Source: Methanobacteriota archaeon
Lineage (GTDB): Archaea > Thermoplasmatota > Thermoplasmata > UBA10834
Assembly (NCBI GenBank): GCA_020725925.1
Contig: DYTN01000003.1
Coordinates: 18,591 to 82,590 of the forward strand
Direction: 5' to 3'
DNA: 64,000 nucleotides
Shown here one piece after another: positions 6,396-39,200 of the stretch. The notes under the pieces are model-generated. The model searched no databases. It was given only the letters and a program-made list of their open reading frames with translations, and was not told where the DNA came from. Position 1 is the first letter of the stretch. The number at the start of each line of letters is the position of its first letter. Made by a program: the position numbers and the translations under genes.

Positions 6396-9300
6396 CTAGG
6401 TCTTGTTCCTCAACCGGCGGGGGAAGACGGGAGCCTTCGAGTAGACTCCCTTCACGATGTCGTTGACCCCACGGACCTTGTCGAGGTCGCCGTCCCAGTC
6501 CTTGAGCACTTGACCGAACTGTTTCTCAATCGCACTCACGGCCTTCTGCATCTTGAGCGCGACCTTTCTGGATGCCTGCCCATGGAGTATGACCGCCAGG
6601 AAGAGATGCTCCCCCTTCTCGACTAGGACGCTCTTCGGGCCGAACTCGATCTTCCTCAAGGTGAACGACGTGATGTCCTTGAACGAGTCCTTCACGAAGT
6701 CCTGGATTGCCACAAACATGCTGCCGAGAACCTGGTCGTCCATTCCCGGCTTCAACCTCCTAGTGCTGTGCGAGATCAACCTTCCATCGTTGTATATCAC
6801 GAACGTCTCGTCCACAGCTATCCTGCCCTCTCGCACGAAATAACCTGAGACGCCGAGGAACGCGAGTACGGCGATAGTCAGGAGATAAGGCCAGGCGACG
6901 GTCAGGAAGTGCAACTCCACCGCCGATGTGTACAGCGGAGTCTGGACGGAATTGCCAGCAAGATCCGAGACGAAGGCGTAGAAAGAGATGTTGCCCTCCC
7001 TGACCGGGAGGTCCAGTACGCGGTAGAAGGTCCCACCGTCGTATCTGCCAACGGTGAAGGCCGAGAACGCAGTCTCACCCTGGAATCTGACGTAGAGCAC
7101 GATGCCACTCGCCTCGACGTTCTGGTCATGGACTCTGACTGTGATGTTCACTCTGCTCCCGCCGAAAAGAGAGGGCTGCGAGGTGTACACGAAGGCACTG
7201 GGAGCGACATCGTCAATCGTTATGCGGGTCTCAAGCCTAGACACGGTCCCCGCTTGATCGCCTGCCACCACGAGTACTGAATGCGGCCCCTCGATCCACC
7301 CACTGGTGTTGAGCTGGTACATGTCGCCGAAATGCATGGGGCCGCCGCCGTCAATATGGTAGACGACGTCTAGCAGAGCTGCCGAGTAGGGAGTGATGAG
7401 GAACACTATGGGGGTTCCGCTGCGAATGACATAGTCCGGCCAGGGACTGAGAATCTGGATGGCGGGAGGTCTGTTCCCGATGATTGCGCTCAGGAGAAAC
7501 GAGTACCCATCATCATCGGTCACGGTGATGTTGAGATGATAGTCACTTCCGAGGGCGTAGGAATGCTTCACTGGAGCTTGCAGGTCATTGATGACTGTTA
7601 GCATCGCACCATCGCCGAAATCATAGACCACTCGCACGACATCCGGGTACCGGACAAGAAGGGGCCCCAGGCCAAAGGTCACATTGCTCGTGTTTGAGAA
7701 GTCTCTTGGGGACTCCACGAGTCCGAAGAATTCTCCCCGAAATGGCTTGTGCCTGATCTCGATAGAGACCTGTTGTGTCGTGACAGAACCGTCGGAGTCG
7801 GTAACCCTGACCTTTGCTGTGTAGTTACCCACTTGAGTGTACGAACAAGTGGACGTGTTGGCGGTCGTTATTGCGTCGGCCTCGAACTCCGCTCCTGGGG
7901 CAACGAAATCCCATTCGTACATCACGGCGGGATCCAAACCCGTTACATCAGCGACGAAGACAACGTCATAGAATTCCTCGTAGTATCCATCCCAACTCTC
8001 CACCGGGACCGTGCTGAGGTCTACGAATGGAGGTATCTCCGTCACATGAAAGCCCAATGTGTAGGAACTCGTGTTGCCATCGAACTCCCTCACGATGAGG
8101 GTCACGCTGTAGTCTCCGTCCTGAAGGTTGGCGAAGCTCATCGCGGCCATCTCAGTGTCGGTAACGTAGAAAGACGAAGAATGGCCATCTGGATATGTCA
8201 GCGTCCAGTTCCAATCCACTATGCCGTCGAACGAATCTGTCGTGCTGATGAACCTGAAAGGCACCCCCTCTTGAGGGTCCGTTGCGTTGAGGACAAGCCC
8301 TGCTATCGGACCAACATCGAAGATGGCCAAGTCCCAAGTCGCGATCGCCGACATCCCGTCGATGTCGGTCACTCTTGAGGCAATCCTGTAGTACTCAGGA
8401 TAGGACTCCGCGCTGAAGACATGGGTAGTAGTATTGCTGTTCGGAGCATATGGATCAGGCACGAAGATCCCAGGAACATATGAATAGTCCCACTCATAGC
8501 TGACTATCGTGTCGACGGGCACACCGTGCCATTCATCGACAAATGCAACGAACGTCACGGGCGATCCCTCGAGTGCGCTTGGAGGGGCATCTATCCTAAC
8601 GTCTGGGGCCTGAGACTGCACGTAGATGAAGTATGTCTTGTTCCCGATGGATCCATCGGTGTCAGTGACCTCCAATGTCACCTCATGGGTTCCGTCCTGG
8701 AACTCGAGTGTCAGGTTGGATTCATCTCCGGTGTAGACTCCGTCGACAATCCACCTTCTGGAGGATACCGGATCGTAGGAGGAGGTCGTGTCCAAGAAGC
8801 TGACCAGCTGTCCTTCGCTCGGATTCTCTGGAGTCCATGAGAAACTGACAAGCGGAACGCTGTCAAGTACAGTGACGTTTGCCTGGTCGAAAGCGGGTTC
8901 GCCTCCCGGGTCAACCGCAATCACGGATATTGTGTAGTTGCGCACGTCCGCGTACGTGTGTGTCGGGGTCACATCCTTGATCCAGCCGCTCACATTGCCA
9001 TCGCCGAAATCCCAGAAGTACTCCATATAGGGAATCTCGGAAGTGCCGGTCTTCACAGTCCCGTTAATCTGGAGCTCGGAACCCTGCCTGGTGACGTAGG
9101 GGCCGCCTGCATCGACCTCGGGTGGCCTATTGATCTGCTCCCATGCCGACACGGACCGCGACCCAGCCTCCAGCACAAGCAGGTCGCCCCTGTTGTCGTG
9201 AGTAGCATCGCCTATTCTAGCGTACACTGGCTCTGCGCCTGTGACAAACGCTGCGGACGGCGTCGCGGGCAGGCCCACCCCAGCTTGGCGATAGAGGAAC

Positions 9301-11426
9301 AGAAGGTCCGCTGAGCCGAATATCGCTATGACATCCGCGTGGCCATCATCGGTCACGTCCTGGACTGAGACGTACTTTGGCACCTCTGGAAGGTCAAGTG
9401 TGCCGAAAGGATGAGGAGCCACAACGAAGTCGTCCTGGTCGAACAGGTACATCGAGCCGTCATACGGCCTCATGGCCACTATGTCCGCCTTGTCATCGCC
9501 CGTGATGTCGCCGCACCAGAGGCTGGTGAAGTCAGAACCCACCGTGTGCGACAGAGTGTAGCCCGGTGAGGAGGCGTCGAATGGCACCCCAGGCTGCTGC
9601 AGAAGCACGACTACCTTTCTAATCGAGCGAGTGTAGGCGATGTCGTTGAGGCCGTCAGAGTTGAAGTCCCCGACCGTGACGGCCCAAATCCCGGCGCCTG
9701 GGGTGAGCGCCACCTCGTAGGAATCGCCAAAGGCGTCAGGGCCCCCGTTGTTGAAGAAGATGTCTAGCTGGCCGTCGCCAGTGGCCGCCAGGATGTCGAG
9801 GAGCTCGTCATCGTTCAGGTCGTCGATTGCGATTGATGTGATCATGTTCCCGCACGTCAGGTTGATTTCGGAGTCAGGGAATGAGATGCCCCCGAAGAGG
9901 ATTCGGATCAATGAGCCGTCCTGCATCGTCACGAGGACATCGCGGTATTCGTCACCGTTGAGGTCAGACACGAGCATTCGGGAGGGGGTGAAGTCGAGAT
10001 CGACCGTCCGCGGGATTCCGCCGAATGAGATGAAGTAATCTACTGTGCGCGCAGCCCTGTTCAGGACCACGAGATCCTGAACGTCGTCTCCATCGATATC
10101 GCCTGCGGCGATCTCCGACGGAACGGCAGACCGGTTGATCCACGAAGTCGCGTTGCTGTTTGAGAAGTAGGGGCTGCGATTTGGATAGAGTCCAATGCTG
10201 GAACCCGCCCAGGCCATGCCGGCGCTCGCGACGACGATGTCTGGCAGAAGGTCTCCGTCAGCGTCGCCAATGGCTGCTGCGCTTGGCAGAGTGCCTGTGG
10301 GGAATCTGAAGTCGGGAACCATGGGCCAGAGCGGGATCGAACTCCCTTGGATCAGGCCCGCAGTGAGGTTGCCGTACTTCGACAGCAAGAGGAGATCATC
10401 CTCCGCACTGCCACTCATGTTTGCAGCGAGTACGAATGAGGGCTCGAAATCGAGCGTCCTATTGTAGTCCTCGACGGACGGAAGCGCTCCGAGGGACTGG
10501 AAGAAGAACCTGACTGCGGGGTCGGTCTGCGTTATCACGGCAAGGTCGTCAAGGGCGTCCCCGTCAAGCCTTCCTGAGGCAAGTCCGGACGGATTACCTG
10601 AAACGGTGAGAACCTGCGATGGCGCGCCACCCAACTCATATGGGCGGTCGAAGATCATGACCGTCGATGAGTAGTAATTGGCGACTGCTAGCTCTTCAGA
10701 GCCATCATCATTGAAGTCGCCCGACACGACAGCTTCTGTTCCCAGACCGCAAGAGGAAGCGTTGTTTGTGGCGAAGCTGGGACCAAAGAAAACCTCCAAT
10801 CTGCCAGGGCTCGACGTAGGATTCGCCCCAGCAGACGCAACTGCGATGTCCGGGTATTTGTCTCCAGAGAGATTGCCGACAATGAACGAGCGGGCATTCG
10901 CATTCGTTGAGTGATCAGGCCATATTTCATAGCTGCTCTCCGACGTGAGGTTGTACACCGTGAACCGTGGAGTCGAGAACACTGGCTCACGCTCCAGCGA
11001 CACGATCTGATGCCCTCCGGACGCGAACACGTCTATGGGAGCGATGCTCATCGGATTGTTCTGGGTCGTGATGTTGAACGATGGATAGGTCGGGAGCTTC
11101 CCGTCCAGGCCTCTGTAGAATATGGAGATGGTCTTGAGGGCATACGAGGAGACCATGAGGTCCGACTGGCCGTCTCCGTTCAGATCTGATATCTCCACAT
11201 CACTGGAGCCACCGCCTACCATGAGGGCCCTGGACACCAGTGGGTACTCGGTCACGTTGACGGAAGTGTCCATGGGGTCGGGGAACAGGATCGCATCCAC
11301 CGACGGCGGAATCTCACTTGCCTCAGCAAGCCGTTGATCGTCGGATGGAGGCACGAGAACGGGGACTGCTAGTGCGAACAGGACGAATGCGCACAGTATC
11401 TTTGCGGTCAACATATGACGAACCAA
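6396..11426 (-). CDS. Giant (1676 aa) type-I surface receptor: signal peptide, FG-GAP/VCBS beta-propeller repeats, PKD-type Ig domains, one TM helix and a cytoplasmic Roadblock/LC7-like domain
   Basis: N-terminal signal h-region ILCAFVLFALAVPVLV. At least 9 repeats with DxDGDG/DxNxDGxxD calcium-loop-like motifs. Several PKD modules (WDFGDG, YEWDFV...). TM helix WPYLLTIAVLAFLGVSGYFV followed by REGR. About 170-aa C-terminal tail with a Roadblock-like hydrophobic pattern. Dozens of NxS/T sequons lie only in the ectodomain. Confidence 0.85.
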   Translation of the reverse strand: MVRHMLTAKILCAFVLFALAVPVLVPPSDDQRLAEASEIPPSVDAILFPDPMDTSVNVTEYPLVSRALMVGGGSSDVEISDLNGDGQSDLMVSSYALKTISIFYRGLDGKLPTYPSFNITTQNNPMSIAPIDVFASGGHQIVSLEREPVFSTPRFTVYNLTSESSYEIWPDHSTNANARSFIVGNLSGDKYPDIAVASAGANPTSSPGRLEVFFGPSFATNNASSCGLGTEAVVSGDFNDDGSEELAVANYYSSTVMIFDRPYELGGAPSQVLTVSGNPSGLASGRLDGDALDDLAVITQTDPAVRFFFQSLGALPSVEDYNRTLDFEPSFVLAANMSGSAEDDLLLLSKYGNLTAGLIQGSSIPLWPMVPDFRFPTGTLPSAAAIGDADGDLLPDIVVASAGMAWAGSSIGLYPNRSPYFSNSNATSWINRSAVPSEIAAGDIDGDDVQDLVVLNRAARTVDYFISFGGIPRTVDLDFTPSRMLVSDLNGDEYRDVLVTMQDGSLIRILFGGISFPDSEINLTCGNMITSIAIDDLNDDELLDILAATGDGQLDIFFNNGGPDAFGDSYEVALTPGAGIWAVTVGDFNSDGLNDIAYTRSIRKVVVLLQQPGVPFDASSPGYTLSHTVGSDFTSLWCGDITGDDKADIVAMRPYDGSMYLFDQDDFVVAPHPFGTLDLPEVPKYVSVQDVTDDGHADVIAIFGSADLLFLYRQAGVGLPATPSAAFVTGAEPVYARIGDATHDNRGDLLVLEAGSRSVSAWEQINRPPEVDAGGPYVTRQGSELQINGTVKTGTSEIPYMEYFWDFGDGNVSGWIKDVTPTHTYADVRNYTISVIAVDPGGEPAFDQANVTVLDSVPLVSFSWTPENPSEGQLVSFLDTTSSYDPVSSRRWIVDGVYTGDESNLTLEFQDGTHEVTLEVTDTDGSIGNKTYFIYVQSQAPDVRIDAPPSALEGSPVTFVAFVDEWHGVPVDTIVSYEWDYSYVPGIFVPDPYAPNSNTTTHVFSAESYPEYYRIASRVTDIDGMSAIATWDLAIFDVGPIAGLVLNATDPQEGVPFRFISTTDSFDGIVDWNWTLTYPDGHSSSFYVTDTEMAAMSFANLQDGDYSVTLIVREFDGNTSSYTLGFHVTEIPPFVDLSTVPVESWDGYYEEFYDVVFVADVTGLDPAVMYEWDFVAPGAEFEADAITTANTSTCSYTQVGNYTAKVRVTDSDGSVTTQQVSIEIRHKPFRGEFFGLVESPRDFSNTSNVTFGLGPLLVRYPDVVRVVYDFGDGAMLTVINDLQAPVKHSYALGSDYHLNITVTDDDGYSFLLSAIIGNRPPAIQILSPWPDYVIRSGTPIVFLITPYSAALLDVVYHIDGGGPMHFGDMYQLNTSGWIEGPHSVLVVAGDQAGTVSRLETRITIDDVAPSAFVYTSQPSLFGGSRVNITVRVHDQNVEASGIVLYVRFQGETAFSAFTVGRYDGGTFYRVLDLPVREGNISFYAFVSDLAGNSVQTPLYTSAVELHFLTVAWPYLLTIAVLAFLGVSGYFVREGRIAVDETFVIYNDGRLISHSTRRLKPGMDDQVLGSMFVAIQDFVKDSFKDITSFTLRKIEFGPKSVLVEKGEHLFLAVILHGQASRKVALKMQKAVSAIEKQFGQVLKDWDGDLDKVRGVNDIVKGVYSKAPVFPRRLRNKT

Positions 11427-15744: not shown

Positions 15745-16935
15745 TCACTTCAGCGGCCGGCCAAGCGCGGACTTCGCGTATTCAGAAACCGCCTCGAAGT
15801 CGAACCCAGCCTTTGCCCAGTATCGCGGGCAGAGGCCGAGCCCGAGGCATGCGTCGTACGTGGCTTGGTCGGGGAAGGAGTCCTCGAAATTCCTAGCTCC
15901 CGAGGGTGCGATGTCGGAAGGTTTCGAGAGGACGGCGGACACGAGCTCAAGGTCGATGCGCTTGCCAAGAGAAGCACAATGCGAAAGCACCGTAACCGGC
16001 TCCGCACCTGCCTTGGCGCAAGCGGAAAGAATCTTACATGCAGTCCTCGCATCTATGCCCATGTCGAATGCCTTCGAGAGTGCAGCTGCATCGTAGTGGA
16101 GATAGCCGGGCTCCTTCGCGACGAGTCTGAGCTCTCTGGGTTCCTCCTCGGTCTTCAGGTAAGTACGGCACGGGTAGGGGCAGCCGTAGCAGCCGACCAA
16201 CCTATGCACGAGTCCCGAGAAGTCATCCCTGGCCAGGTTCGGGTAGAAGGACGCCAATCCGGAACTCATCCCGAGCGTCGTCAGGTGCTCCCTCATCAGC
16301 AGTATGGAGTCTTCGAAGTGCTTGTCCGGCTCGGACAGCTCCAGCTCGCCCATGCCTCTGAACGCGACCGCGAGCACGTTCTTCGCCCCGAGAGCTGACG
16401 CCGTGCCGACCTTGTCCTCGCCACCCCAGTAGTTCACGACGAGCTGCGATGCTTTCAAGCAGGCGTCTCCCCAAGGACCGCATGACGCGACCTGGATCTT
16501 TGCATCGCCTTGTTCCGATCGGACCTTGTCAGTCCGACCCCACGAGCTGAGGGCCCTCATATCAGGCGCTGCAACGAACTCCAATTGACCATCCCTGGCC
16601 CAGACATACCCTTGGCCCGGAGCCTTTCCCTTGAGCACGATGAAATCGAATCCTGTGAGCTTGAGTTCGAACCCCGCGAAGCCCATCAGCGGCATGATCT
16701 TCGACCCTCCTGAGCCGCCCGCGCGCACGATTCCAGCGCATGCTGCTGGCACAAAACTGCCTGTCAGCACGCCCGTGCCGAACACGATGGAATCCTGACC
16801 GTGCTCGGTCGCGAGCGCCTCCGCCACCGCAATGGACGAGGAATCGTCCAGGCCTCTGTCCTCCGAGTACCCCTGCTCCGAGGCCTTCCCTGAGGAGAGG
16901 TCGAGCACGCCGATCCTCCCGTTCCTGAGATACAC
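15745..16935 (-). CDS. Aldehyde:ferredoxin oxidoreductase (AOR) family protein, short form (396 aa)
   Basis: AOR-like N-terminus (MYLRNGRIGVLDLSSGK...) and the CxxCxxxC [4Fe-4S] motif (CYGCPYPC). It is about 200 aa shorter than canonical AOR. Confidence 0.55.
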   Translation of the reverse strand: MYLRNGRIGVLDLSSGKASEQGYSEDRGLDDSSSIAVAEALATEHGQDSIVFGTGVLTGSFVPAACAGIVRAGGSGGSKIMPLMGFAGFELKLTGFDFIVLKGKAPGQGYVWARDGQLEFVAAPDMRALSSWGRTDKVRSEQGDAKIQVASCGPWGDACLKASQLVVNYWGGEDKVGTASALGAKNVLAVAFRGMGELELSEPDKHFEDSILLMREHLTTLGMSSGLASFYPNLARDDFSGLVHRLVGCYGCPYPCRTYLKTEEEPRELRLVAKEPGYLHYDAAALSKAFDMGIDARTACKILSACAKAGAEPVTVLSHCASLGKRIDLELVSAVLSKPSDIAPSGARNFEDSFPDQATYDACLGLGLCPRYWAKAGFDFEAVSEYAKSALGRPLK

Positions 16936-16936
16936 C

Positions 16937-17340
16937 CTAGTCCACCACCATGATGCATCCCGTGGGACACACCTTCGCGCACTTGGCCTTGCCCCCGCAC
17001 AGGTCGCACGGCTCCCTCAGGAGTATGGGCTTCGCCCCTGGACCTCCCGACCCAGGCGCCTGTTGACCCTCGGATACCCCCTCTGGCCGGGCTAGCACGA
17101 GCCCTCCCGACTTCGTCTTCAGCACCAGGCCGAAGTAGTCGGCCTTGTCGTCAATGTGCAGGATGATGCTTGAGGACATTGGCGTGAGCACAGAATCCCT
17201 GTTCAGGCTGCACGCGGTCTCGCAGAGCCCGCAGCAGATGCACCTCAGGGGCTCGATCTTGAGTCTCAGGCTCCCACCGGGCCTTCCATCTACCGGATGT
17301 GCTCCGCCACATCGGTTGTGATGCGGTCGCAGTACACGCA
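16937..17340 (-). CDS. 2x[4Fe-4S] ferredoxin, start uncertain
   Basis: CICCGLCETAC and CDLCGGKAKCAKVCPTGC cluster motifs. There is no canonical start between the pyrI stop and the first cluster motif, so the start probably overlaps pyrI. Confidence 0.45.
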
Positions 17341-17745
17341 CCTGAGCGTAATCGGCTTCTTCGACTCGACCACGAACTCCGCCTCGACCGGCTCGTCCTT
17401 GTTCGTTATGCAGCCCGGATTGGAGCACTCCATAATCCCCTTGATCACGTTCGGGACTTCGACCACGAACTTCTCGGCCACGTTGTAGTCCCTGATGATG
17501 TTGATGGTGGCGTTGGGGGAGATGAGGGCTATCCTGTCGAGCTCCTTGGGGTCCAGCTCCCGGTCCTCTATCTTGACTATGTCCTTCCACCCGGCCTTCT
17601 TGCTCGGCACGTGCATGAGCACGCTCACTGTCGAGCTGACCTCGTCCTTCACACCGATGATCTTCAGGACCTTCAGCGCCATGCCGACGGAGATGTGGTC
17701 TATGACGGTGCCGTTGCGGATCGGTGTGACCTTGAACTCCTTCAT
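17290..17745 (-). CDS. pyrI: Aspartate carbamoyltransferase regulatory subunit
   Basis: MKEFKVTPIRNGTVIDHI... N-domain and a C-terminal Cys4 zinc domain (CSNPGC...CVYCDR). Confidence 0.95.
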   Translation of the reverse strand: MKEFKVTPIRNGTVIDHISVGMALKVLKIIGVKDEVSSTVSVLMHVPSKKAGWKDIVKIEDRELDPKELDRIALISPNATINIIRDYNVAEKFVVEVPNVIKGIMECSNPGCITNKDEPVEAEFVVESKKPITLRCVYCDRITTDVAEHIR

Positions 17746-18677
17746 TTCAGTCCCCCCAGTATCAGGCCGAGGAGCGCCATACGCACAGGCACGCCGTTGA
17801 ACGCCTGGTCGAAGTACTTCGCGTGCTCCGTCGCGTCGACCTCGGACGATATCTCGCCCACCCTCGGAAGCGGGTGCATGATCATCAGGTCGCGCTTGAC
17901 GTCCTTCAGCATCGGCAGGTCGATCCTGTACATCCCCGCGACCTTCTGGTACTCCGCGGGGTCCGGGAAGCGCTCCTTCTGGATGCGCGTCACATAGAGC
18001 ACGTCCGCGTCCTTGATGACCTCCTCCAGCGAGCCTGATATCCTGGGCTTGCGGCCCAGGGACTCTATCTGCTTCAGGTGCTCCTTGGGGATCTGCAGCG
18101 AGGGCGGGGCGACGAAGGTGAGGTCCGCGCCGAACATCGCGAGCGCCTCGGACAGCGAGTGCACGGTCCTTCCGTACTTGAGGTCCCCGACGATGACCAC
18201 GTTGTTCCCCTCGACCTTCTTCTTCTCCTTCCTGATGGTGAACAGGTCGAGCATCGTCTGGGTCGGGTGCTGGCCCGCTCCGTCACCGGCGTTGATTATG
18301 GGCCGAGAGGCGAAGTGCGCCGCCAGCCTGGCCGCGCCCTCCTGGGGATGCCTCAGCACGATGACATCGCTGTACGAGTCGACCATCCGTATCGTGTCGG
18401 CCAGAGTCTCGCCCTTCGCGACGGACGCCCCTGCGGGCTGGTCGAACCCGAGCACTCTCCCGCCCAGGCGAGTCATGGCGGCGTCGAAGGAGAGCCTCGT
18501 CCTCGTCGAGGGCTCGTAGAACAAGGAGCCAAGCACGTGTCCCTCGAGGAGCACGCTCCGCTCCTCCCCCTTTGCAATCGGGACCATCTTCTCCGCGAGC
18601 TTGAGGACATGTTCGATCTGTTCTCTCGAAAAATCACGGATGGAGACGACGTCCATCCCCTTGAACCCTGCTGACAT
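17742..18677 (-). CDS. pyrB: Aspartate carbamoyltransferase catalytic subunit
   Basis: STRTR, HPxQ, HPLP motifs. The start was chosen as MSAGFKGMDVVSIRDFS by alignment to archaeal PyrB N-termini; the track ORF extends to 18761. Coupled to pyrI (ATGA). Confidence 0.93.
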   Translation of the reverse strand: MSAGFKGMDVVSIRDFSREQIEHVLKLAEKMVPIAKGEERSVLLEGHVLGSLFYEPSTRTRLSFDAAMTRLGGRVLGFDQPAGASVAKGETLADTIRMVDSYSDVIVLRHPQEGAARLAAHFASRPIINAGDGAGQHPTQTMLDLFTIRKEKKKVEGNNVVIVGDLKYGRTVHSLSEALAMFGADLTFVAPPSLQIPKEHLKQIESLGRKPRISGSLEEVIKDADVLYVTRIQKERFPDPAEYQKVAGMYRIDLPMLKDVKRDLMIMHPLPRVGEISSEVDATEHAKYFDQAFNGVPVRMALLGLILGGLK

Positions 18678-18761
18678 CAAGCTCCTAATCTTCTGAAAGA
18701 ATATAAGCCTTACATCAACGCAAACCGGAGGGAACGGGCGACGGGACGCCACGTCTGGCAA

Positions 18762-19163
18762 TCAGACCAGGTCGAAATCATCGATCGCGGCGTTCATGTT
18801 GTCGAACCAATCGTCCGCGCACTTGTGCAGCTTCTGCTTCAGCGCTTCGGGGGACACTGCCGCATACACATGATAGTATCCGCCCCGGTCAATGGTCTTC
18901 GTGTCCCTGAAGGCCAGGCCCGACGAGACGAGCTTCTGCAGGGCGCGGTAGACAGTGCTCCTGTCCTTCTTGAGGACGGGCGCGAGGTCGTCGGCCTTCT
19001 GAGGACCTTGCTTGACGAGCTTCCTGTAGATCGCGAGTTCGAAATCGGACAGCCTGTACAGGCACTTCACGATGTCCCTGCAGGAGGCATCGCCGGCCAG
19101 AATCCTCTGAGGCTCGACCATGTTGCACGGTATTGCCATTTTTATACTTAACCGTTTTGACAT
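18762..19163 (-). CDS. Winged-helix (TrmB/MarR-like) transcriptional regulator
   Basis: LSDFELAIYRKLVKQGPQKADDLAPVLKKDRSTVYRALQKLVSSGL is an HTH plus wing. Start assigned to MSKRLSIKMAIP. Confidence 0.55.
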   Translation of the reverse strand: MSKRLSIKMAIPCNMVEPQRILAGDASCRDIVKCLYRLSDFELAIYRKLVKQGPQKADDLAPVLKKDRSTVYRALQKLVSSGLAFRDTKTIDRGGYYHVYAAVSPEALKQKLHKCADDWFDNMNAAIDDFDLV

Positions 19164-19231
19164 ACACGCACGGCCAGCAACCGATTTCTGCTCAACGTGA
19201 AAACCTTTATCTATCACCGTGAGAATCGTCG

Positions 19232-19495
19232 TTGCGCGGTATTGTCAATACCGTGGGAGCGATTCTCTTGCAGAAAGACGCGACGCTTGACGCGAGGGGG
19301 CTCATGTGCCCCATGCCCATAGTGCAGCTCGCGAAGAAGGTTAAGGAGCTGAAGTCCGGCCAGGTGCTTGAACTCTTGGCCGATGACCTGGGATCGAAGG
19401 AGGACGTGCCTGCCTGGTGCTCGAGGACCGGCAATGCGCTGGTCGGCACCGAGGGGGAGGGCAAGGTCCTCAAGTTCTACATCAGGATGAAGTGA
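19232..19495 (+). CDS. tusA: TusA-like sulfur carrier protein
   Basis: LDARGLMCPMPIV has the CPxP active-site motif. Length and C-terminal beta-strands are TusA-like. Confidence 0.8.
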   Translation: MRGIVNTVGAILLQKDATLDARGLMCPMPIVQLAKKVKELKSGQVLELLADDLGSKEDVPAWCSRTGNALVGTEGEGKVLKFYIRMK

Positions 19496-19514
19496 GGCAG
19501 AAAGAGGTATTGAG

Positions 19515-19919
19515 ATGACCGAAAAGCTATCGATGGTAGTGAGCGAGGGGACCTTCGACAAGGCGATGATGCCCCTCATAATGGGGACCACGGCCGCTGC
19601 GATGGGGACCGAGGTGCACGTGTTCTACACGTTCTTCGGGACCAAGCTGATCACCAAGGGCGTGAAGCCCAAGCTGCCCGGGTTCTGGCGACTGTTCACA
19701 GGGATGTTCGTCAAGAGGATGAAGAAGGTCGGCATCGCGGAGTACCACCAGCTCGTGAAGGACGCTCAGGAGATGGGCGTGAACTTCTACGCGTGCAGCA
19801 CCACCATGGGCCTCTTGGGGGTCAAGGAGAGCGACCTGCTGCCGGGCGTGAAGGTGCTTGGCGCTGCTGCGTTCTTGAAGCTCGCCTCTGAGTCGAAGGT
19901 CAGCCTGTTCATCGGGTGA
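19515..19919 (+). CDS. DsrE/DsrF-like family protein (COG2210, YrkE/DsrE2-type)
   Basis: MVVSEGTFDKAMMPLIMGTTAAAMGTEVHVFYTFFG matches the COG2210 DsrE-like consensus. Confidence 0.7.
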   Translation: MTEKLSMVVSEGTFDKAMMPLIMGTTAAAMGTEVHVFYTFFGTKLITKGVKPKLPGFWRLFTGMFVKRMKKVGIAEYHQLVKDAQEMGVNFYACSTTMGLLGVKESDLLPGVKVLGAAAFLKLASESKVSLFIG

Positions 19920-19928
19920 GATGATAGC

Positions 19929-20231
19929 ATGCCGAGAACGGCATTCGTCATCCTGAAGTCGCCTCAGGAGCAGGACCCGACGCATTCGATGAGGAGGGTC
20001 GCTGAGCCTGCGGAGTCCAGTGCGATCCTCCTGGAGGACGGCGTATACCAGGCGTTGCTTGCCGGCGCGGCTGAAAAGCTGGGCAAGGCGGCGGCCGACG
20101 TGCTCGTTTCCAGGGATGACCTCGAGGCGAGGGGCTTCGGACCGGCTGACCTCAGAATAGGCAGGGCCGCAGAGTATGGGGACATCGTGGACTGCATAAT
20201 GGAGCGGACAGAGCGGTCCGTCACCGTGTGA
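19929..20231 (+). CDS. DsrH/TusB-like sulfur relay protein
   Basis: 100 aa. FVILKSP...AILLEDGVY aligns with TusB/DsrH (LHxLxxSP...LLLxxDGV). Confidence 0.65.
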   Translation: MPRTAFVILKSPQEQDPTHSMRRVAEPAESSAILLEDGVYQALLAGAAEKLGKAAADVLVSRDDLEARGFGPADLRIGRAAEYGDIVDCIMERTERSVTV

Positions 20232-20240
20232 GGGATTGCG

Positions 20241-20600
20241 ATGGCCAAGACTCTCACGATACTGTGGAGGACCGGCTCGATGATGGCCATGGACGCCAAC
20301 GTAGCTGCTAAGCTGGCGAAGGCCGCCCTCGAGAAGGGCTACAAGGTCAACATGTTCGGGTACGGGGAAGGCGTCACGGCGGCCAAGAAGGGCCAGAAAC
20401 CCAAGCGGTTCCCCAACGTCGGCGAGGAGCTGGAGGCGGCGTGCAAGGAGGGCGTGAGCATAGCCGTGTGCGAGACATGCTACGCCGCCAGGGGCTTCGA
20501 GCGCGGGGAGGAGATATCCGGGGCCAAGGTCGGCAGCCTGACGAACGACCTGTTCAGGTTCCTGTCCGAGTCCGACAGGCTCGTGACAATCGCGAGGTGA
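20241..20600 (+). CDS. DsrE/TusD-like sulfur relay protein
   Basis: 119 aa. IAVCETCYAARG holds the conserved active-site Cys, in the position of TusD Cys78. Confidence 0.7.
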   Translation: MAKTLTILWRTGSMMAMDANVAAKLAKAALEKGYKVNMFGYGEGVTAAKKGQKPKRFPNVGEELEAACKEGVSIAVCETCYAARGFERGEEISGAKVGSLTNDLFRFLSESDRLVTIAR

Positions 20601-20962
20601 TGACCATGGCCGGATCGATTCTTGTTCTCATCACAAAGGCTCCATACGGGCTTGAGGAGGCGTTCGCGGGTCTGAGGCTCGCCCTTGCCACGGGGGTGAA
20701 CGGAATGAAGACCTCCGTCCTGATGGTCGAGGATGGCGTCTTCAACGCGGTCGGATCACAGAGGTCGGAGGCCGTGAGGATGCCGTCCAACATCGAGGCG
20801 ACCAAGGAACTGTACGACTTCGACGTCCCGGTCTATGTCGTCAAGGAGGACATGGAGGCCAGAGGAGTCGCCGAATCGAAGCTCTTCGACGGGCTGAAGG
20901 TTGTTCCTGCGTCACTCGTCAGGAAGCTCGTCGCGGAGCACGATTTGGTCACGACTTTCTGA
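20600..20962 (+). CDS. DsrF/TusC-like sulfur relay protein
   Basis: ILVLITKAPYG...SVLMVEDGVF. The ATG overlaps the preceding stop (TGATGA). Confidence 0.65.
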   Translation: MTMAGSILVLITKAPYGLEEAFAGLRLALATGVNGMKTSVLMVEDGVFNAVGSQRSEAVRMPSNIEATKELYDFDVPVYVVKEDMEARGVAESKLFDGLKVVPASLVRKLVAEHDLVTTF

Positions 20963-21027
20963 CGGCCCGCAGAGATGAGCGGCACGCAAACCATTCTCCT
21001 TTATTACTCGATAGTCATTGCACACTC

Positions 21028-22734
21028 GTGCGATTCGAGCCCCTTGAAAGAGACGGATTGGGCAGGATCGGCGTGCTCGAGCTCGACGGCAAGAAGCACA
21101 CCACGCCCACCACCGCTTTCGTTGACACTGAGAAGTATCCAGCCCCACCGGGCTCCCTGACCCTCAGCATCGAGCGGGGCGGTGAGGCCGGTCTGGTCAT
21201 CGCGCGGTCCCGGTTCGCGACAGGCCCGGAGGCGGGCGAGGCACAGGCCGATCTGAGGCCGGGGACGAGAGGGTCGCCCTATGCTCCTCCGCAACCAGCG
21301 GGCGGCTTTGCGACCGTCGCCGACATCGCGGGGGGATTGCTCGATTCCACGGAGTTCGTGGCAGCGATTGGGAAGATCAAGGGTTCAGAGGACCTCCTCA
21401 GGCCGCTCTACTGTTCTGTGATGGGGCTCCCCCACAGGCTCGCGCTCCTGACTTACTGCGGGTTCGATGTGTTCGATTCAGTGCCCCTGATCATGGCGGC
21501 CGAGAACGGCACATACCTCACGACCACAGGTCCACTCGAGCACAGCGCTCTGAGGGAACTCCCTTGTTCATGCCCCGCCTGCTCCGAAGGGGTCACAGAC
21601 AAGAAGCACCTCCTCGCCCACAACTGCCACGAAGCGATTTCCGAGCTGAAGCTGGTCAGGCATGCCATCTCCCAGGGCAGGCTTCGTGAGCTGGTCGAAT
21701 CGAGGGTGCGGTCGGATCCGTGGCTCGTGCAGGACCTGCGGCTCCTGGACCTCGAACACTATGAGCTGCTGGAGATGCACACCCCGGTCCGGGGCTCGCC
21801 GTTCCACGCGGGGTCGAAGGAGTCACTGATGCGGCCGGATATCGTGCGCTGGCGGAGGCGCCTCGAGGCGAGGTATGCCAAGCCCGAGGGGACGCGTATC
21901 CTGCTCCTATTCCCCTGTTCCGCCAGGAAGCCCTACTCCTTGTCCCAATCACACAAGCGCTTCCGGGAGGCCGTTGCGTCCAGTGGCGCGGGCGGGATCG
22001 TGCACGAGGTCGTCGTCACCTCGCCCCTCGGACTAGTCCCTCGGGAGCTGGAGCTGTTCTACCCAGCCAAGGACTACGACATTCCAGTGACTGGCCACTG
22101 GGACAACGACGAGAAGAAGATGGCCCAGGAGATGGTCACATGGCTCGTGACGACACAGAGGTACGACCTGGTGATTTCGCATCTTGGCGACGAGCGCGAG
22201 CCCGTCAACGCGGTCCTGAAGGACTTCGAGGACACTTCGCTCGGCCACCCGGGATCGAGGGAGAGCCTCGACAACCTCGAGGCAGTGCTGAGGGAGCACG
22301 CCGGAGACACGGGGATGGGAGACCGTACGCTGGCAGACATGCGAGCCCTCTGCGTATTCCAGTTCGGGCCTGCAGGCGGGAATCTGTGTGAAGGCGCGGT
22401 GATAGCCGGGAGGTGGCCGAACCTGAAGATCATGAGGGGGCGTACGCAACTCGGCATGCTCACGGGCGAGAGAGGCATGGTGTCTTTGACCATGGACGGC
22501 GCGAGGGTTCTCGCATCCGCCGATGCATACTGCGTCGAGATCGACGACTTCGCTCCCAAGGGCAATCTGTTCGCGATAGGAGTGGAGAAGGCCGACGGGC
22601 AGATCCGCATCGGAGACGATGTCGCAGTCACACACAAGGGCGAGGTCAGGGCTGCGGGTGTGGCGAAGATGACGCCGGTCGAGATGGAGCTGGCCGAGAG
22701 GGGAGAGGCCGTGCACATAAGGCACTCGCTCTGA
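21028..22734 (+). CDS. arcS: Archaeosine synthase ArcS-like protein (truncated TGT-like domain, DUF5591 and PUA), GTG start
   Basis: TGT-like N-terminus (LGRIGVLELDGKKHTTP), Zn site CSCPAC...H, DUF5591 block LLFPCSARKPYS, and a C-terminal PUA (IGDDVAVTHKGEVRAAGVAKM). A low-complexity insert lies at aa 60-100. Confidence 0.7.
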   Translation: MRFEPLERDGLGRIGVLELDGKKHTTPTTAFVDTEKYPAPPGSLTLSIERGGEAGLVIARSRFATGPEAGEAQADLRPGTRGSPYAPPQPAGGFATVADIAGGLLDSTEFVAAIGKIKGSEDLLRPLYCSVMGLPHRLALLTYCGFDVFDSVPLIMAAENGTYLTTTGPLEHSALRELPCSCPACSEGVTDKKHLLAHNCHEAISELKLVRHAISQGRLRELVESRVRSDPWLVQDLRLLDLEHYELLEMHTPVRGSPFHAGSKESLMRPDIVRWRRRLEARYAKPEGTRILLLFPCSARKPYSLSQSHKRFREAVASSGAGGIVHEVVVTSPLGLVPRELELFYPAKDYDIPVTGHWDNDEKKMAQEMVTWLVTTQRYDLVISHLGDEREPVNAVLKDFEDTSLGHPGSRESLDNLEAVLREHAGDTGMGDRTLADMRALCVFQFGPAGGNLCEGAVIAGRWPNLKIMRGRTQLGMLTGERGMVSLTMDGARVLASADAYCVEIDDFAPKGNLFAIGVEKADGQIRIGDDVAVTHKGEVRAAGVAKMTPVEMELAERGEAVHIRHSL

Positions 22735-28164: not shown

Positions 28165-29667
28165 ATGGCCTCCCTGGACATCGCCAGGCTGAGGGGCGAT
28201 ATCGAGCCTTTCCAGAGCGAGCTCATGGAGGAGTTCTACAGGAACTACGCCGGGCTCAAGGACGAGATGGCGACGGTCGAGATCTACGACCGATATGCAC
28301 ACCTGTTCTCCGAGGCCGCGGTCTCTGCCGTCAAGGAGGCCATGGAGCAGTCCGAGCAGCAGGAGGACTCCCGGTGCATGAGGTACCTGAGGGCATTCAC
28401 CACCACCGGATACCTCGACAGCTCCGTGAAGGTGCTCACTGACAAGGCCAACACGTTCGAGGCCCAGTCCATCGTGGACTTGGACGGGGAGAAGATCCCG
28501 TACAGGGCGGTTCCCGTCAAGCTCAGGAACGAGCCTGACGCCGAGAAGCGGCGAAGGCTGTTCGAGGCGAAGCTGGTGGAGACCGACAAGCTCAACCTCA
28601 CGCTGATGGAGCGGATGGCCACGGTCCACAATCTCTCCGCGACGCTCGGGTTCAAGAGCTACGGGGAGCTGTGCGCCACGGTGAAGAGGATCGACTACAA
28701 GGCCCTCGAGGGACAGATGGAGGAGCTGCTGAAGAGGACCGAGAAACTGTACGTCGAGGCCATGGGCTCGGTGCTCCAGGCGCGCGCGGGCATGTCTTTG
28801 GGCGAGGCGTGGAGCTACGACATACCCTTCGCCTTCCGAGGGGACGACTTCGACAGGCATTTCCCGAAGGAGAGGCTCGTCGAGGCATTCCACACGACCC
28901 TGAAGGGGATGGGGATCGAGCCCTCGAAGTACGAGAACATCGCGGTCGACATCGAGGAGAGGCCGAAGAAGACATCCCGGGCATTCTGCGCGCCCGTGAA
29001 GGTGCCGGACGATGTCAGGCTCGTGATCATGCCGACGGGCGGCTGGAAGGACTACGAGGCTTTCTTCCACGAGGGAGGGCACGCATTCCACTTCGGGACC
29101 GCGAAGAAGTCGCTGCCGGCCGAGTACAGATACCTGGGGGACAACTCCGTCACTGAAGCATTCGCATTTCTGATGAACAGGCTCCTGAACAACTCGCTCT
29201 GGCTGAAGAAGGTCCTCGGGATGGAACAGCCGGAGGACTTCGTGAGGTTCACGCTGACCAACGAGCTGATGTTCCTGAGGAGGTACGCCGCGAAGCTCGT
29301 GTACGAGCTCAAGCTGCACCATGCGATGGTCTCCTCGGAGTACATGGAGGTCTACAGGAGCTGCCTGCAGAAGGCGCTCAGGTTCAAGCACACGGAGAAG
29401 CACTTCCTCGAGGATGTCGACGACGCGCTCTACTGCGCGGACTACCTCAGGGCATGGATCCTCGAGGCGCAGATCAGGGCGGCCCTCGTGGACGAGTTTG
29501 GGGACGAATGGTTCCTGAACGAGAAGTCGGGCGAACTTCTGAGGCAGCTGTGGTCGTACGGGCAGAAGTACACGGCCGACGAGATGGTCAAGACCCTCGG
29601 GTACGTGGATCTGGACATGGACCCGCTCGTCATGGAGATAGAGAGGGGGCTGGGCGGGTCCGGCTGA
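28165..29667 (+). CDS. M3-family oligoendopeptidase (PepF-like)
   Basis: HEGGHAFH is the HExxH zinc motif in an M3B-type context. The long ORF in the track (from 27151) is antisense to metG, so the real start is MASLDIARL. Confidence 0.75.
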   Translation: MASLDIARLRGDIEPFQSELMEEFYRNYAGLKDEMATVEIYDRYAHLFSEAAVSAVKEAMEQSEQQEDSRCMRYLRAFTTTGYLDSSVKVLTDKANTFEAQSIVDLDGEKIPYRAVPVKLRNEPDAEKRRRLFEAKLVETDKLNLTLMERMATVHNLSATLGFKSYGELCATVKRIDYKALEGQMEELLKRTEKLYVEAMGSVLQARAGMSLGEAWSYDIPFAFRGDDFDRHFPKERLVEAFHTTLKGMGIEPSKYENIAVDIEERPKKTSRAFCAPVKVPDDVRLVIMPTGGWKDYEAFFHEGGHAFHFGTAKKSLPAEYRYLGDNSVTEAFAFLMNRLLNNSLWLKKVLGMEQPEDFVRFTLTNELMFLRRYAAKLVYELKLHHAMVSSEYMEVYRSCLQKALRFKHTEKHFLEDVDDALYCADYLRAWILEAQIRAALVDEFGDEWFLNEKSGELLRQLWSYGQKYTADEMVKTLGYVDLDMDPLVMEIERGLGGSG

Positions 29668-36219: not shown

Positions 36220-39200
36220 CTACCTGCGCCTGGTCCTCATCCTGACGAGCAGCACGAGCACCACTGCCCCGACTATCGGGATCAGGACGGTCGGGAACTC
36301 CGGAATGATGCCCGAGATGGTTATCTGCACCTCGTCCGTGTTCCAGTTGCCAGCCGCATCCGTCACGTTGAGGGTGATGTTGTACACACCCTCGGTCCAG
36401 AAGACGAAGCTGACCTCCTCGCCCCAGAGGGTATATGGCGTGCCCTCGTAGTCGAAGGTCCAGGTCCAGTTCACGATGCCGACATCGTCCCAAGAGCCGG
36501 AGGCGTTGAGCACGACGAGCTCCCCGCCCATCCTGACCTGATCGTCGCCCGCATTGGCCGTCGGAGGCGTCACATCGATCACGGTGACGACCATAGTGTC
36601 GGGCGCGGACAGCTGCCCGGCAGTGTCCTCAACCACTAGCTCGACGTTGTACACGCCCGGCACCGTGAAGGTGAACTGGGGCGAGACGTCGTACAACTCC
36701 TGGCTCAGCTCGAGGATGGTCCAGGTGTAGTTCACTATCCCGACATCATCGGTGGAGCCGGAGCCGTCGAACGTCACCAAGGTCTCGTCGTCGACATCCT
36801 GGTCCGGACCAGCGTCCGCGACAGGGAGCTGGTCAGCCGCGACATCCACCCAAGTGCTGTCCGAATTCATCAGGTTAGCTCCATCCCAGACAGTCAGCGT
36901 GATCGTATGGTTGCCTGTGGTCGTGAAGGCGTAGTCCACCGACTCGCCAAAGAGCAACACAAGTCCGCCGTCATCGAAGGTCCACTGGTAGGTCACTATG
37001 CCCACGTTGTCGCTGGACATGCTGCCGTCGAGCGTGACTGTCACGCCCTCGATCGCGTCCTGCCCGGGACCGGCGTCTGCGACAGGCGGGTCGTTGTCGA
37101 CCGTGAAGAGCTCGAACTGTATCGCTCCCCTGCCTCCCCAGTCGCCGATGAAGTACAGGGTGGCATAGCCGCCGCTCGGGGCGGACGGCGCGGAGACGAA
37201 CTCCGTGTCCACCACGCTCCATGCGCCGATCGGGTAGATCCCCAGCCAGTTCCAGTTCGCGGTGCCGCTCTCAACCCTCAACAGCGCCACATATGGGATC
37301 ACGACCCCCGTCGGGTCGGACGGGTAGGCCGTCTCCAGGCTGCCGTTGTCGAAGGTGAAGAACGCGAACGCGTGCGTGGCCCCGTCGAACCATGCAGTGC
37401 CCTCCTCGGGACCCGCCATGGTGGAGTTCACATACTCCCCCCGGAAGGCCCAGTACAGGTCAGGCCCCCACCAGATCTCGTAGAGCTGCAGGTATACCTG
37501 ATCGGTCGTGTTGGACAGCCAGCCGGCCCGAGGCTGGGCGGACCACCAATAGCTCACGACGTAGCTGTCCCCGATGATTGAATATGGCAGGTCGTTCTGC
37601 GACTGCTCCAGCGGATGCATGCCGACGGAGCGCGTCTCGACGCCGTAGTAGTAGTCCCATATGCCCGCGGAGCCGTTCATCATGAACTGCCAAAGGGAGA
37701 TCTGCTGGGCGTCGAACTCCTGGGCGGAGGCGTAGATCCAGGTCGGGTTGGCCATGGACACGTTCTCCGTCGCGGACTGAGTGTATGTCAGGTTCGGGCC
37801 CCAGAGATCAGTCACAAGCACGAAGTCGAGCCTCACGTCCGTCATGCCTGACGCGTTGATGCTCGACTGACCATGCGTGTTGTCGACGGCGTGCGCGACG
37901 ACGATGAGCTCGATCGGCGGGATCCACATCTCGTAGCTCCCGTCAGCCAATGTTCTGGTGGAGTTCCTCTCCATATAGTCCGGCGAGCCCGTGCCTACCT
38001 CCACCGTCGCGTTGAATATGCCGCTGCCGGACCCGGTGTTGTTCACATAGCCCCAGAGCCTCACTGTGTCAGGGATGTCCCACGGCGTCAGGCCGAAGTC
38101 CCGCAAGTTGGCCCCCGAGGACACGGTCACGGTCGTGTGCATGTCCCTGTAGCCGGGCACACCATAGATGTCCACCGAGTACTCGCCTGAGACGAGGGAG
38201 ACGTTGTAGTCCCCGGTGGCGTTTGACTCGGTCCATTCATCATAGTCCGGGGAGTGGAAGCTCATGCTGGCGTTTGCCACAGGCGCGCTCGAGAACGCGT
38301 CGAGCACCTTCCCAGTGAGCCAAGCATCGATCGGCCGGAGCCCGAAGTCCCACCAGAGCAGGTCACCAGGATTGATGGTGACGTTCCACGTCACGTTCCT
38401 GGAATAGCCATCGGCCTCTGCGCCGAGGATCAGGTCGGTGCCGTCGAACGCGTCCAGAATGTACGCGCCCGAGGAGTTGCTGATGGCCATGTTCATCGTA
38501 CCGTTCATGTCGAACAGGAAGACCCATGCGTTCGGGAGCGGGTCGCCTGTGCTGAGGTCCGTCACATTTCCCCTGACGGTGGCGGTCGTCGGCGCGAGGG
38601 ACGCATCGAGGACTTCGTCCTCACCTGGGAGCACCTCGAGCCCCTCCATCACGAACATTGAGTACCCAACGAGAGACATCACGACTCTGGCATAGCTCCC
38701 GTTCGTGACGTTCATGAAGTAGTACCCTGTGGCATCTGTCCACGTGCGGTTGCTGTAGCCCTGCTCTGTGGTCTCATTCCATGTCTCGTACATGACGAGG
38801 ACGTTCTCGATGGGCAGGCCTGTGCCCCGCTCCGTGACAGTGCCGGAGAGCGTGGCATCGTCCGCGTAGATCTGCGGCTCCAGCGTGATGTTGAACCAGT
38901 AGGTCATGCCAGAGACGAGCGGGTCATTGGTTCCGTTGTCGATGAACGGGTATCCGGGGAAGTCCAGTGCGGCGATGCCCCCACCTGCGATGGACGGGAT
39001 CACATTGACGGAGTAGTATCCCGCGCCGTCCGGCTTCGTCATGTTGACGTAGAGCGGGGCGCCCTCGCCCATCGTGGCGGGGTCGTTGGAAAATCCTCCG
39101 ATGTTCCCGTTGGACACGGGAGCGCCGAACTCGTCGGTCACATAGCCCTTGAGAGTGACATCAGCTACTGTCGGCGCGATGTTGTCCAAGGTGAAGTTGA

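Follow-up and report, generated by a model that had tools for sequence, protein, structure and literature searches.

Five small genes lie in close succession on the + strand of a 64,000-nucleotide (nt) stretch of contig DYTN01000003.1 (hereafter the window), which belongs to assembly GCA_020725925.1 of an archaeon of the class Thermoplasmata. They code for the sulfur carrier TusA, a DsrE2B-like protein and three subunits resembling DsrH, DsrE and DsrF, and they run from 19232 or 19268, depending on the start of tusA, to 20962. By the list of open reading frames (ORFs) and the sequence itself, the gaps between them are, in order, 19, 9, 9 and 5 nt (a dsrF start at 20600 would turn the last into an overlap of 1 nt), and a ribosome-binding site of the GGAG/GAGG type is found 5' of every one of the five. 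The initial annotation of this DNA had described a tightly packed, co-directional cluster, and in this it was right, as it was about the family of each of the five products by Pfam. The end that it gave to the cluster also holds, but its start at 19232 probably does not, since the TTG at 19268 (75 rather than 87 amino acids, aa) is preceded by GGGAG and its column in the alignment of upstream regions is TTG, GTG or ATG in most loci of uncultured Thermoplasmata, which makes it the more likely start of tusA. The column at 19232 reads [A/T]TG in many loci, and its distance from the TATA box would suit a leaderless start. The dsrF gene starts at 20606 (or 20600), and the start of its longest ORF, at 20441, is not real.

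Table 1. Features of the operon and of its upstream region, with positions in the window
Feature	Position	Strand	Basis and remarks
tusA, 75-aa sulfur carrier, Cys14 in CPMP	19268..19495	+	PF01206; alternative start TTG 19232 gives 87 aa
dsrE2B-like, 134-aa soluble protein of the DsrE family, Cys94 in 'YACST' its one conserved cysteine	19515..19919	+	PF13686
dsrH/tusB-like subunit, 100 aa, no conserved cysteine	19929..20231	+	PF04077
YchN-type DsrE subunit, 119 aa, invariant motif C77-x-x-C80-x3-RG	20241..20600	+	PF02635
dsrF/tusC-like subunit, 118 aa, no cysteine	20606..20962	+	PF02635; alternative start 20600 overlaps the dsrE stop
TrmB/Lrs14/Sta1-like winged-helix regulator, 133 aa from ATG 19163	18762..19163	-	PF01978 in syntenic orthologues
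TATA-like box TTTATCTA, purine-rich BRE-like stretch upstream, putative tusA promoter	19206..19213	+	alignment
Perfect 8-1-8 palindrome CGGTATTGTCAATACCG, about 28 nt past the TATA box, putative operator	19237..19253	.	alignment and pattern search

TusA matches its Pfam family at E = 1.4e-24 (86.1 bits against a gathering cut-off of 28.6), CPMP motif included, and its nearest structures in the PDB are Ta1170 (1pav) and E. coli TusA. It falls below the NCBIfam equivalog for TusA (NF001423, 58.3 versus 78 bits) and has weak matches to YedF in the same database. The DsrE2B-like protein belongs to the DrsE_2 family (E = 9.7e-33), misses the NCBIfam equivalog SulfCarrDsrE2 (96.1 versus 210 bits) and has 2qs7 (SSO1126, E = 5.7e-19) as its nearest PDB entry, the two being aligned across the cysteine motif ACSTTM. 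Cys14 of TusA is kept in 55 of 56 relatives and Cys94 of the DsrE2B-like protein in 56 of 56, and the gene of the latter adjoins tusA in all the loci with the tusA-dsrE2-dsrHEF layout.

The other three genes code for a TusB-like subunit, a YchN-type subunit with a CxxC motif and a TusC-like subunit. They had been initially taken as homologues of the TusBCD/DsrEFH subunits, a claim that Pfam families and profile relatedness support, but all three NCBIfam equivalog cut-offs are missed. Thus, the DsrH-like protein passes the Pfam threshold (E = 4.8e-7, 30.3 versus 24.4 bits) but not that of TIGR03011 (TusB/DsrH, 43.1 versus 49.2). Its nearest PDB entry is DsrH, and its family profile (profiles were built from about 60 loci and compared by hhalign with E. 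coli proteins) matches TusB at 96.8%. Its sole cysteine, Cys89, is present in 25 of 58 relatives and is not conserved. For the DsrF-like protein (Pfam E = 7.3e-14), the best NCBIfam family is TusC/DsrF, with 51.3 bits against the cut-off of 94.15 for TIGR03010, the best structure is DsrF (2hy5_B, E = 5.9e-7) and the hhalign match to TusC reaches 97.1%; there is no position with a cysteine in more than 30% of its 63 relatives. The three families are also linked to each other, H to F at 98% and E to F at 97.5 to 98.2%, depending on the query profile.

The E subunit (Pfam E = 1.8e-14) contains the sequence 'IAVCETCY', in which Cys77 aligns with the cysteine of 'VVCVAAAQRRG' in DsrE (2hy5_A), i.e., the position of Cys78 in TusD/DsrE. 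The initial annotation had correctly pointed to the active cysteine of this motif, and calling the gene DsrE-like is justified to that extent, but the protein is of the YchN type, with an invariant CxxC that had gone unremarked. Its CETC aligns with the CKTC of YchN, while DsrE is without a second cysteine there. Among structures, YchN (1jx7) is found at E = 1.3e-7 and DsrE (2hy5_A) at 0.055; the family profile matches YchN at 98.4% versus 64.5% for TusD, and the score with TIGR03012 (TusD/DsrE) is 22.6 bits against a cut-off of 89.25. Both Cys77 and Cys80 are present in 66 of 66 relatives. In an alignment of 19 more distant ones, these two residues, Arg84 and Gly85 are invariant, and most of the distant relatives listed have the CxxC. 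The AlphaFold2 model (predicted local distance difference test, pLDDT, of 94.4) has 1jx7 as its best Foldseek match (template modeling score, TM, of 0.88, root mean square deviation of 1.5 Å), followed by DsrE and TusD (TM 0.87). In the model, Cys77 is the last residue of a strand (73-77), and the helix after it (78-83) has Cys80 in its first turn. In databases, IMG labels this subunit as 'tRNA 2-thiouridine synthesizing protein D', and pipelines also use 'sulfur reduction protein DsrE'.

Because every curated equivalog cut-off is missed, the relationship holds at the level of the superfamily only, and these proteins are distant relatives of the characterized bacterial complexes and not orthologues. 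Exactly three proteins of the operon have invariant cysteines, namely TusA (Cys14), the DsrE2B-like protein (Cys94) and the E subunit (Cys77 and Cys80). H, E and F co-occur in every locus examined, including the sister operons described below, and, given that the YchN-type protein is always flanked in this clade by the cysteine-free H and F paralogues, we infer that the three form a hetero-oligomer.

Conservation and genomic context

The distribution of the E subunit was established by a scan of GTDB with one genome per species, which reaches proteins at least 50% identical, and beyond that from five context look-ups (the related loci compared are labeled with L-numbers, e.g., L001, L040 or L066). 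The closest proteins, 75 to 94% identical, come from uncultured Thermoplasmata. The subfamily is narrow: among 1.84 billion cluster representatives, an exhaustive HMMER search gave only 127 clusters with E <= 1e-3, of which 22 reached E <= 1e-10. The GTDB scan recovered 60 loci, all of them from uncultured Thermoplasmata/Thermoplasmatota or Methanomassiliicoccales, including Methanomassiliicoccus sp., to which a second protein search added Methanomethylophilaceae and the rumen metagenome-assembled genome (MAG) RumEn M1. Since the same five genes appear in the same order, tusA-dsrE2-dsrH-dsrE-dsrF, in every sufficiently long locus of these 60 species, the operon is not a chance arrangement. It is a trait conserved in this class, in which the window genome does not stand out. 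The suggestion that such an operon is unusual for an archaeon therefore does not stand within this lineage, where it is conserved in 60 of 60 matched species of Thermoplasmata/Methanomassiliicoccales. We found no paper dealing with it in either group.

The flanks are usually those of the window, i.e., a small divergent regulator and pyrI-pyrB upstream and arcS downstream. In about 50 loci, arcS lies 3' of dsrF in the same orientation (the ArcS protein scores 457 bits versus the NCBIfam cut-off of 440), and PyrB/PyrI are conserved equally deeply (46 loci, 13 of them labeled Methanomassiliicoccales). There is an alternative layout (L001-type), with a thermosome gene upstream, a radical S-adenosylmethionine (radical-SAM) gene downstream and neither PyrBI nor ArcS. 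The adjacency to ArcS is inherited synteny, as indicated by the equal conservation of PyrBI and by the L001-type loci and sister operons without ArcS. The block pyrI-pyrB-regulator<>tusA-dsrE2-dsrHEF-arcS (17290-22734 in the window; L004-L062, from both uncultured Thermoplasmata and Methanomassiliicoccales) is still intact at an E-subunit identity of about 62 to 68%. It should be noted that synteny this deep is unusual for functionally unrelated genes.

Further away, at 47 to 53% identity to the E subunit of the window, the same trio is found in sister operons with other partners. In L063-L065 and L066 (7033-12465), the arrangement is trmB-like<>dsrH-dsrE-dsrF-tusA followed by genes for a YeeE-type transporter (Sulf_transp, 441 aa) and a multi-rhodanese protein (694 aa), which looks like a system for the uptake and relay of thiosulfate or sulfane sulfur. 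In L067 (5964-8762) and L068, the trio follows iscS (Aminotran_5) and nifU/iscU, with spacers of 28 to 33 nt; this tight operon, which adjoins ribosomal protein genes, puts the trio in direct connection with a cysteine desulfurase. L069 has dsrH-dsrE-dsrF without other partners. At a still greater distance, a Bathyarchaeota cluster (ArsR-dsrE-dsrF-FeS-dsrH) lies beside genes for an ArsP-type permease and thioredoxin-like proteins, and Jordarchaeales have tusA paired with a dsrE that codes for a CxxC protein. The trio H-E-F behaves like a portable module that is joined to functions of sulfur mobilization or assimilation. One Methanomassiliicoccus sp. MAG (L055, 11202-15272) has a second cluster 0.7 kb past arcS, at a distance of 2.5 kb from the operon, which reads by eye as a DsrE-like gene with a single cysteine, then tusA, one gene resembling MvhD and two resembling HdrA.

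The window was annotated by synteny with L004 and L005, by Pfam on its ORFs and by NCBIfam. The Pfam-annotated parts are about 1 to 6.4 and 11.5 to 52 kb, except for the gene of a 1109-aa protein within the latter. These parts showed no dsr, hdr, mnmA or tusE gene, and there was no dsrAB, dsrC, dsrMK, shdr or lbpA among the Pfam-annotated genes of the window or in the Pfam-annotated flanks of L001-L005. Nor was a linkage to Dsr or Hdr genes, which is part of the definition of DsrE2 in Liu et al. 2014, seen in the same parts and flanks. In the remaining 55 loci from GTDB, the screen covered TusE and a few named proteins. For TusE/DsrC, phmmer with the single query of E. coli TusE (of limited sensitivity) gave nothing better than E = 3.5 in the window and in 74 archaeal loci with about 8 to 10 kb of flanks; this search alone covered small DsrC-like ORFs between 52 and 64 kb. 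The initial annotation had likewise seen no adjacent tusE/dsrC, mnmA or hdr.

The annotated neighbors are LarE-LarB (1.2 to 2.7 kb), PyrBI, ArcS, Pelota, MetRS, ABCE1, an energy-coupling factor (ECF)-type transporter, IorAB and a histidine kinase. LarE (311.7 versus 150 bits) and LarB (282.3 versus 175), of the nickel-pincer cofactor pathway, are encoded at 1178-2748 (+) by genes overlapping by 4 nt, with no LarC among their annotated neighbors; they are 17 kb from the operon and positionally unrelated to it. At 15745-17290 (-), there is a gene for a 396-aa protein in which only AFOR_N (the N-terminal domain of aldehyde:ferredoxin oxidoreductase) was matched; the small ORF after it has two ferredoxin motifs of the CxxCxxC type, and the two genes are kept as a pair in L004 and L005. 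A 499-aa M3-type oligoendopeptidase-like gene with HEGGH (28168-29667, +; only 38.8 bits with NCBIfam M3_not_pepF) sits between metRS and ABCE1/RLI, and the syntenic contig L004 is without a gene there. Two very large proteins, of 1677 and 1109 aa, encoded at 6396-11426 (-) and 36220-39546 (-), are predicted surface proteins, the latter with repeated 'DAGPDQ...' modules; in L005, FG-GAP and PKD repeats occur in the product (1681 aa) of a large neighboring gene at the edge of the locus. The gene of a histidine kinase of 912 aa with a GAF domain is divergent to a rubrerythrin gene (45789-49066), and the two may be a redox- or oxygen-response pair. By eye, the stretch from 52 to 64 kb holds an oligopeptide ATP-binding cassette transporter, a membrane protease and a ferredoxin-like ORF.

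Divergent regulator and putative operator

The small gene upstream of tusA codes for a winged-helix protein that scores below the cut-off of both NCBIfam Sta1 (63.6 bits) and Lrs14 (49.5 bits) and whose nearest PDB entries are 3r0a and 2d1h. It divergently adjoins the operon in about 50 loci, among them the differently built L063-L066, and it is presumed to be a dedicated regulator because the adjacency is kept across both operon architectures. Two of its cysteines, Cys28 and Cys34, are present in 50 of 50 relatives, and Cys115 in 46 of 50. This cysteine-containing regulator and its putative operator go beyond what had been initially reported for the locus.

The aligned upstream regions share a conserved 'ACGTGA.AA..TTTAT'. 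The palindrome downstream of it (Table 1) was established by alignment and pattern search, as a scan for inverted repeats missed arms of 8 nt at its length setting; scans for sigma-70 promoters and intrinsic terminators are uninformative for archaeal DNA. It is the only one in the window, even when up to 3 mismatches are allowed, and the relaxed pattern CGGTNNTGNCANNACCG is found at the matching relative position in 35 loci. The invariant bases are independent of codon phase, and L040 has matching substitutions in both arms. In Methanomassiliicoccales, a different palindrome, TTGCAC-N4-GTGCAA, occupies the equivalent site. The position of the window palindrome at the expected start of transcription suggests an operator for repression, and the regulator together with this 17-nt palindrome is a candidate archaeal repressor/operator pair responsive to sulfur or redox state.

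Possible roles of the operon

On balance, we think that this unit is probably a regulated cytoplasmic relay of sulfane sulfur serving assimilation or biosynthesis and not energy metabolism. The single steps that follow are to be taken with much less confidence than this general statement. Activated sulfur, as persulfide or possibly thiosulfonate, would be loaded on Cys14 of TusA by a mobilizing enzyme encoded elsewhere, which, to judge by the sister operons, may be a cysteine desulfurase or a rhodanese. TusA would then exchange sulfur with a homo-oligomer of the DsrE2B-like protein (through Cys94) and with DsrH, DsrE and DsrF, assembled into a hetero-oligomer on the plan of TusBCD/DsrEFH. In this hetero-oligomer, the YchN-type E subunit would be the only cysteine carrier, with the persulfide held at Cys77, at the N terminus of a helix and at the active-site position of DsrE/TusD. 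Cys80, one helical turn away, could resolve this persulfide, so that either sulfide is released beside a client enzyme or a disulfide/trisulfide is formed and recycled by a thiol reductant. The sulfur might end in Fe-S-dependent thiolation or in cofactor pathways, the acceptor not being encoded nearby. The divergent TrmB/Lrs14-like protein would repress the operon at the palindrome, its invariant Cys28/Cys34 pair being a candidate thiol switch. Which way the sulfur moves, what Cys80 does, that the regulator represses and senses, and what the acceptor is are all parts that we infer.

In favor of such a relay, the archaeal sulfur donor for 2-thiouridine at tRNA positions 34 and 54 (s2U34/s2U54) is listed as 'S-donor?' (PMC5372739). 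NcsA, TtuA and ThiI are Fe-S thiolation enzymes with a sulfur donor that is not known (PMC5372739, PMC7025502), and they are plausible clients. In Methanococcus maripaludis, a pair annotated as TusA and TusD (TusAD) responds strongly to chalcogen supply (PMC11097638). The conservation of the operon in 60 of 60 matched species, methanogenic Methanomassiliicoccales included, speaks for this assimilatory relay. Elsewhere, the trio is joined either to a cysteine desulfurase and its scaffold or to a thiosulfate-type importer and a rhodanese, and these partners are our main ground for preferring biosynthesis or assimilation to a dissimilatory role. Several observations weigh against it. The window-type operon encodes neither a sulfur acceptor nor a donor. 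As all the NCBIfam equivalog thresholds fail, function cannot be transferred from TusBCD/DsrEFH, and for YchN, the closest characterized fold, no functional study was found in the literature. The sister contexts come from proteins only 47 to 53% identical and from few lineages, and the dsrE-tusA-mvhD-hdrA cluster 2.5 kb away in L055 could mean a link to redox or energy metabolism. Furthermore, the archaeal study of Liu et al. 2014 is reported to have found DsrE2B without transfer activity.

The alternative that we take most seriously, although it seems unlikely, is homeostasis or detoxification of excess sulfane sulfur (polysulfide, persulfide or thiosulfate) or a related chalcogen, governed by a thiol-sensing switch and without biosynthetic delivery. 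It is hard to separate from the assimilatory relay by sequence alone. The CxxC at the N terminus of a helix resembles a redox-active resolving pair, the regulator has its invariant cysteine pair, and the sister operons include a YeeE-type transporter and a multi-rhodanese protein or lie near an ArsP-type permease, thioredoxin-like genes and ArsR. In addition, TusAD of M. maripaludis is up 4.5 log2-fold under selenium depletion (PMC11097638). However, the iscS-iscU-dsrHEF operon points to biosynthesis, and a core synteny among housekeeping genes (pyrBI, arcS, pelota and metRS) in 60 species fits a constitutive need better. The window-type operon also comes without a reductase, dioxygenase or exporter. 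A selenium-trafficking role, which the TusAD response and the weak YedF matches might have indicated, was set aside because Methanomassiliicoccales and the other lineages concerned are not known as selenocysteine users.

The remaining explanations have less in their favor. It is very unlikely that the operon is the routine tRNA 2-thiouridine relay of E. coli, in which sulfur passes from IscS through TusA, TusBCD and TusE to MnmA to give s2U34. The IMG label of the E subunit, the matches of H and F to the TusB and TusC profiles (about 97%), the presence of TusA and the one sister operon with iscS-iscU would agree with it. Against this, the TusD, TusC and TusB cut-offs are missed (widely so for TusD, at 22.6 versus 89.25 bits), the E subunit is of the YchN type with a TusD match of only 64.5%, and the single-query search in the window and 74 archaeal loci did not find TusE/DsrC. 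Besides, s2U34 is made in archaea by the Fe-S enzyme NcsA and not by MnmA, and TusBCD/TusE are not widely conserved (PMC7025502, PMC5372739). We regard it as highly improbable that the operon is an accessory to dissimilatory sulfur oxidation, in which TusA and DsrE2 would pass sulfur either by way of DsrEFH to DsrC (in rDsr organisms) or to the sHdr complex. Linkage of tusA to dsrE2 together with DsrEFH is a hallmark of sulfur oxidizers (PMC4175335, PMC11094781, PMC8477390). The DsrE2-like protein is closest to SSO1126, of an hdr-linked cluster of Sulfolobus, and L055 has its hdrA-containing cluster nearby. Yet the oxidation genes named above (dsrAB, dsrC, dsrMK, shdr and lbpA) were missing from the Pfam-annotated window and the L001-L005 flanks, and the DsrE, DsrF and DsrH thresholds were not reached. 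The operon is universal in H2-dependent methylotrophic methanogens (matched loci), which are strict anaerobes. The authors of DiSCo warn that DsrEFH matches outside rDsr organisms are paralogue false positives (PMC8477390). Such matches are commonly taken as markers of sulfur oxidation, which would be wrong for MAGs of Thermoplasmata/Methanomassiliicoccales, and the analysis of the operon corrects what is likely a systematic mis-annotation.

A dedicated supply of sulfur to the neighbors, either ArcS-dependent tRNA modification or the sacrificial cysteine of LarE, had been proposed in the initial annotation and is barely credible. It is true that arcS comes next after dsrF, in the same orientation, at about 50 loci and that the LarE and LarB of the window are genuine equivalogs. 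But ArcS is absent beside the L001-type copies and all the sister operons, PyrB/PyrI are as conserved as it is, which implies an inherited arrangement, and a TATA-like, T-rich spacer separates dsrF from arcS. LarE is 17 kb off, with about 15 unrelated genes in between. The functional link to ArcS was accordingly rejected, and the formation of archaeosine is not known to involve sulfur.

A bolder version of the favored assimilatory relay is that the H-E-F heteromer with its YchN-type CxxC subunit, together with TusA and DsrE2B and under a dedicated thiol-switch repressor, would be a DsrE-family machine of a kind not recognized before and the missing sulfur donor for Fe-S-dependent thiolation in Thermoplasmatota (NcsA/TtuA/ThiI or thiocarboxylation of small archaeal modifier proteins, SAMPs), providing local sulfide through persulfide resolution at the CxxC. 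Taken as a whole, this seems a long shot, but if true it would give YchN-type proteins their first function. More generally, a conserved and regulated TusA/DsrE operon is a candidate for routing sulfur to tRNA thiolation, thio-cofactors and Fe-S clusters in archaea, in a class that includes gut and rumen methanogens. Through it, the orphan CxxC proteins of the YchN type become connected with TusA and with a TusBCD-like, heteromeric architecture, and its regulator, which has a defined putative operator, is a candidate for an archaeal transcription factor that responds to sulfur.

Comparison with known systems

The nearest parallels are TusBCD of E. coli (2d1p) and DsrEFH of Allochromatium vinosum (2hy5), both of them heterohexamers (alpha2-beta2-gamma2), which share with the window operon three adjacent paralogous genes of the DsrE fold and a TusA partner. 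Cys77 of the window E subunit is at the position of Cys78 in TusD/DsrE, and its model superimposes on DsrE/TusD with a TM of 0.87. However, the second invariant cysteine of the CxxC sets it apart from TusD/DsrE, the gene order is H-E-F and not D-C-B or E-F-H, no TusE/DsrC, MnmA or DsrAB context was found, and the hosts are anaerobic archaea, including methanogens. With YchN of E. coli (1jx7), the E subunit shares the C-x-x-C-x3-RG motif, a length of about 117 to 119 aa and a single DsrE-fold domain, at about 25% identity in the structural alignment of the model. YchN is reported to have crystallized as a homo-oligomer. While ychN is solitary in E. coli, the window gene is always found between dsrH-like and dsrF-like genes in its clade.

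Among archaea, the dsrE3A-dsrE2B-tusA cluster of Sulfolobales (Mcup_0681-0683 in Metallosphaera cuprina; SSO1125-1127 in S. solfataricus, structures 3mc3 and 2qs7) also has tusA beside a soluble DsrE2B-type gene. The window operon is without the thiosulfonate carrier DsrE3A and has the H-E-F trio instead, and it is not flanked by the hdr-like and dihydrolipoamide dehydrogenase genes that PMC4175335 describes for Sulfolobales. In rDsr oxidizers, the rhd-tusA-dsrE2 cluster (Alvin_2599-2601 in A. vinosum) resembles it in the adjacency of tusA and dsrE2 and in a TusA feeding a DsrEFH-type complex, according to PMC4175335 and PMC11094781. In A. vinosum, however, the protein is a DsrE2A, with two conserved cysteines and originally predicted to be membrane bound, whereas that of the window is DsrE2B-like, and the window-type operon has neither a rhodanese nor a dsr context. 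The unit described here thus differs from its relatives in the YchN-type CxxC protein as the presumed catalytic, sulfur-carrying subunit, the H-E-F order, the junction of the trio with tusA-dsrE2B, a regulator of its own and no DsrC/TusE found nearby. It is nevertheless of a known kind, a TusA/DsrE-family sulfur relay of which it represents an uncharacterized variant, and the chemistry expected of it is conventional.

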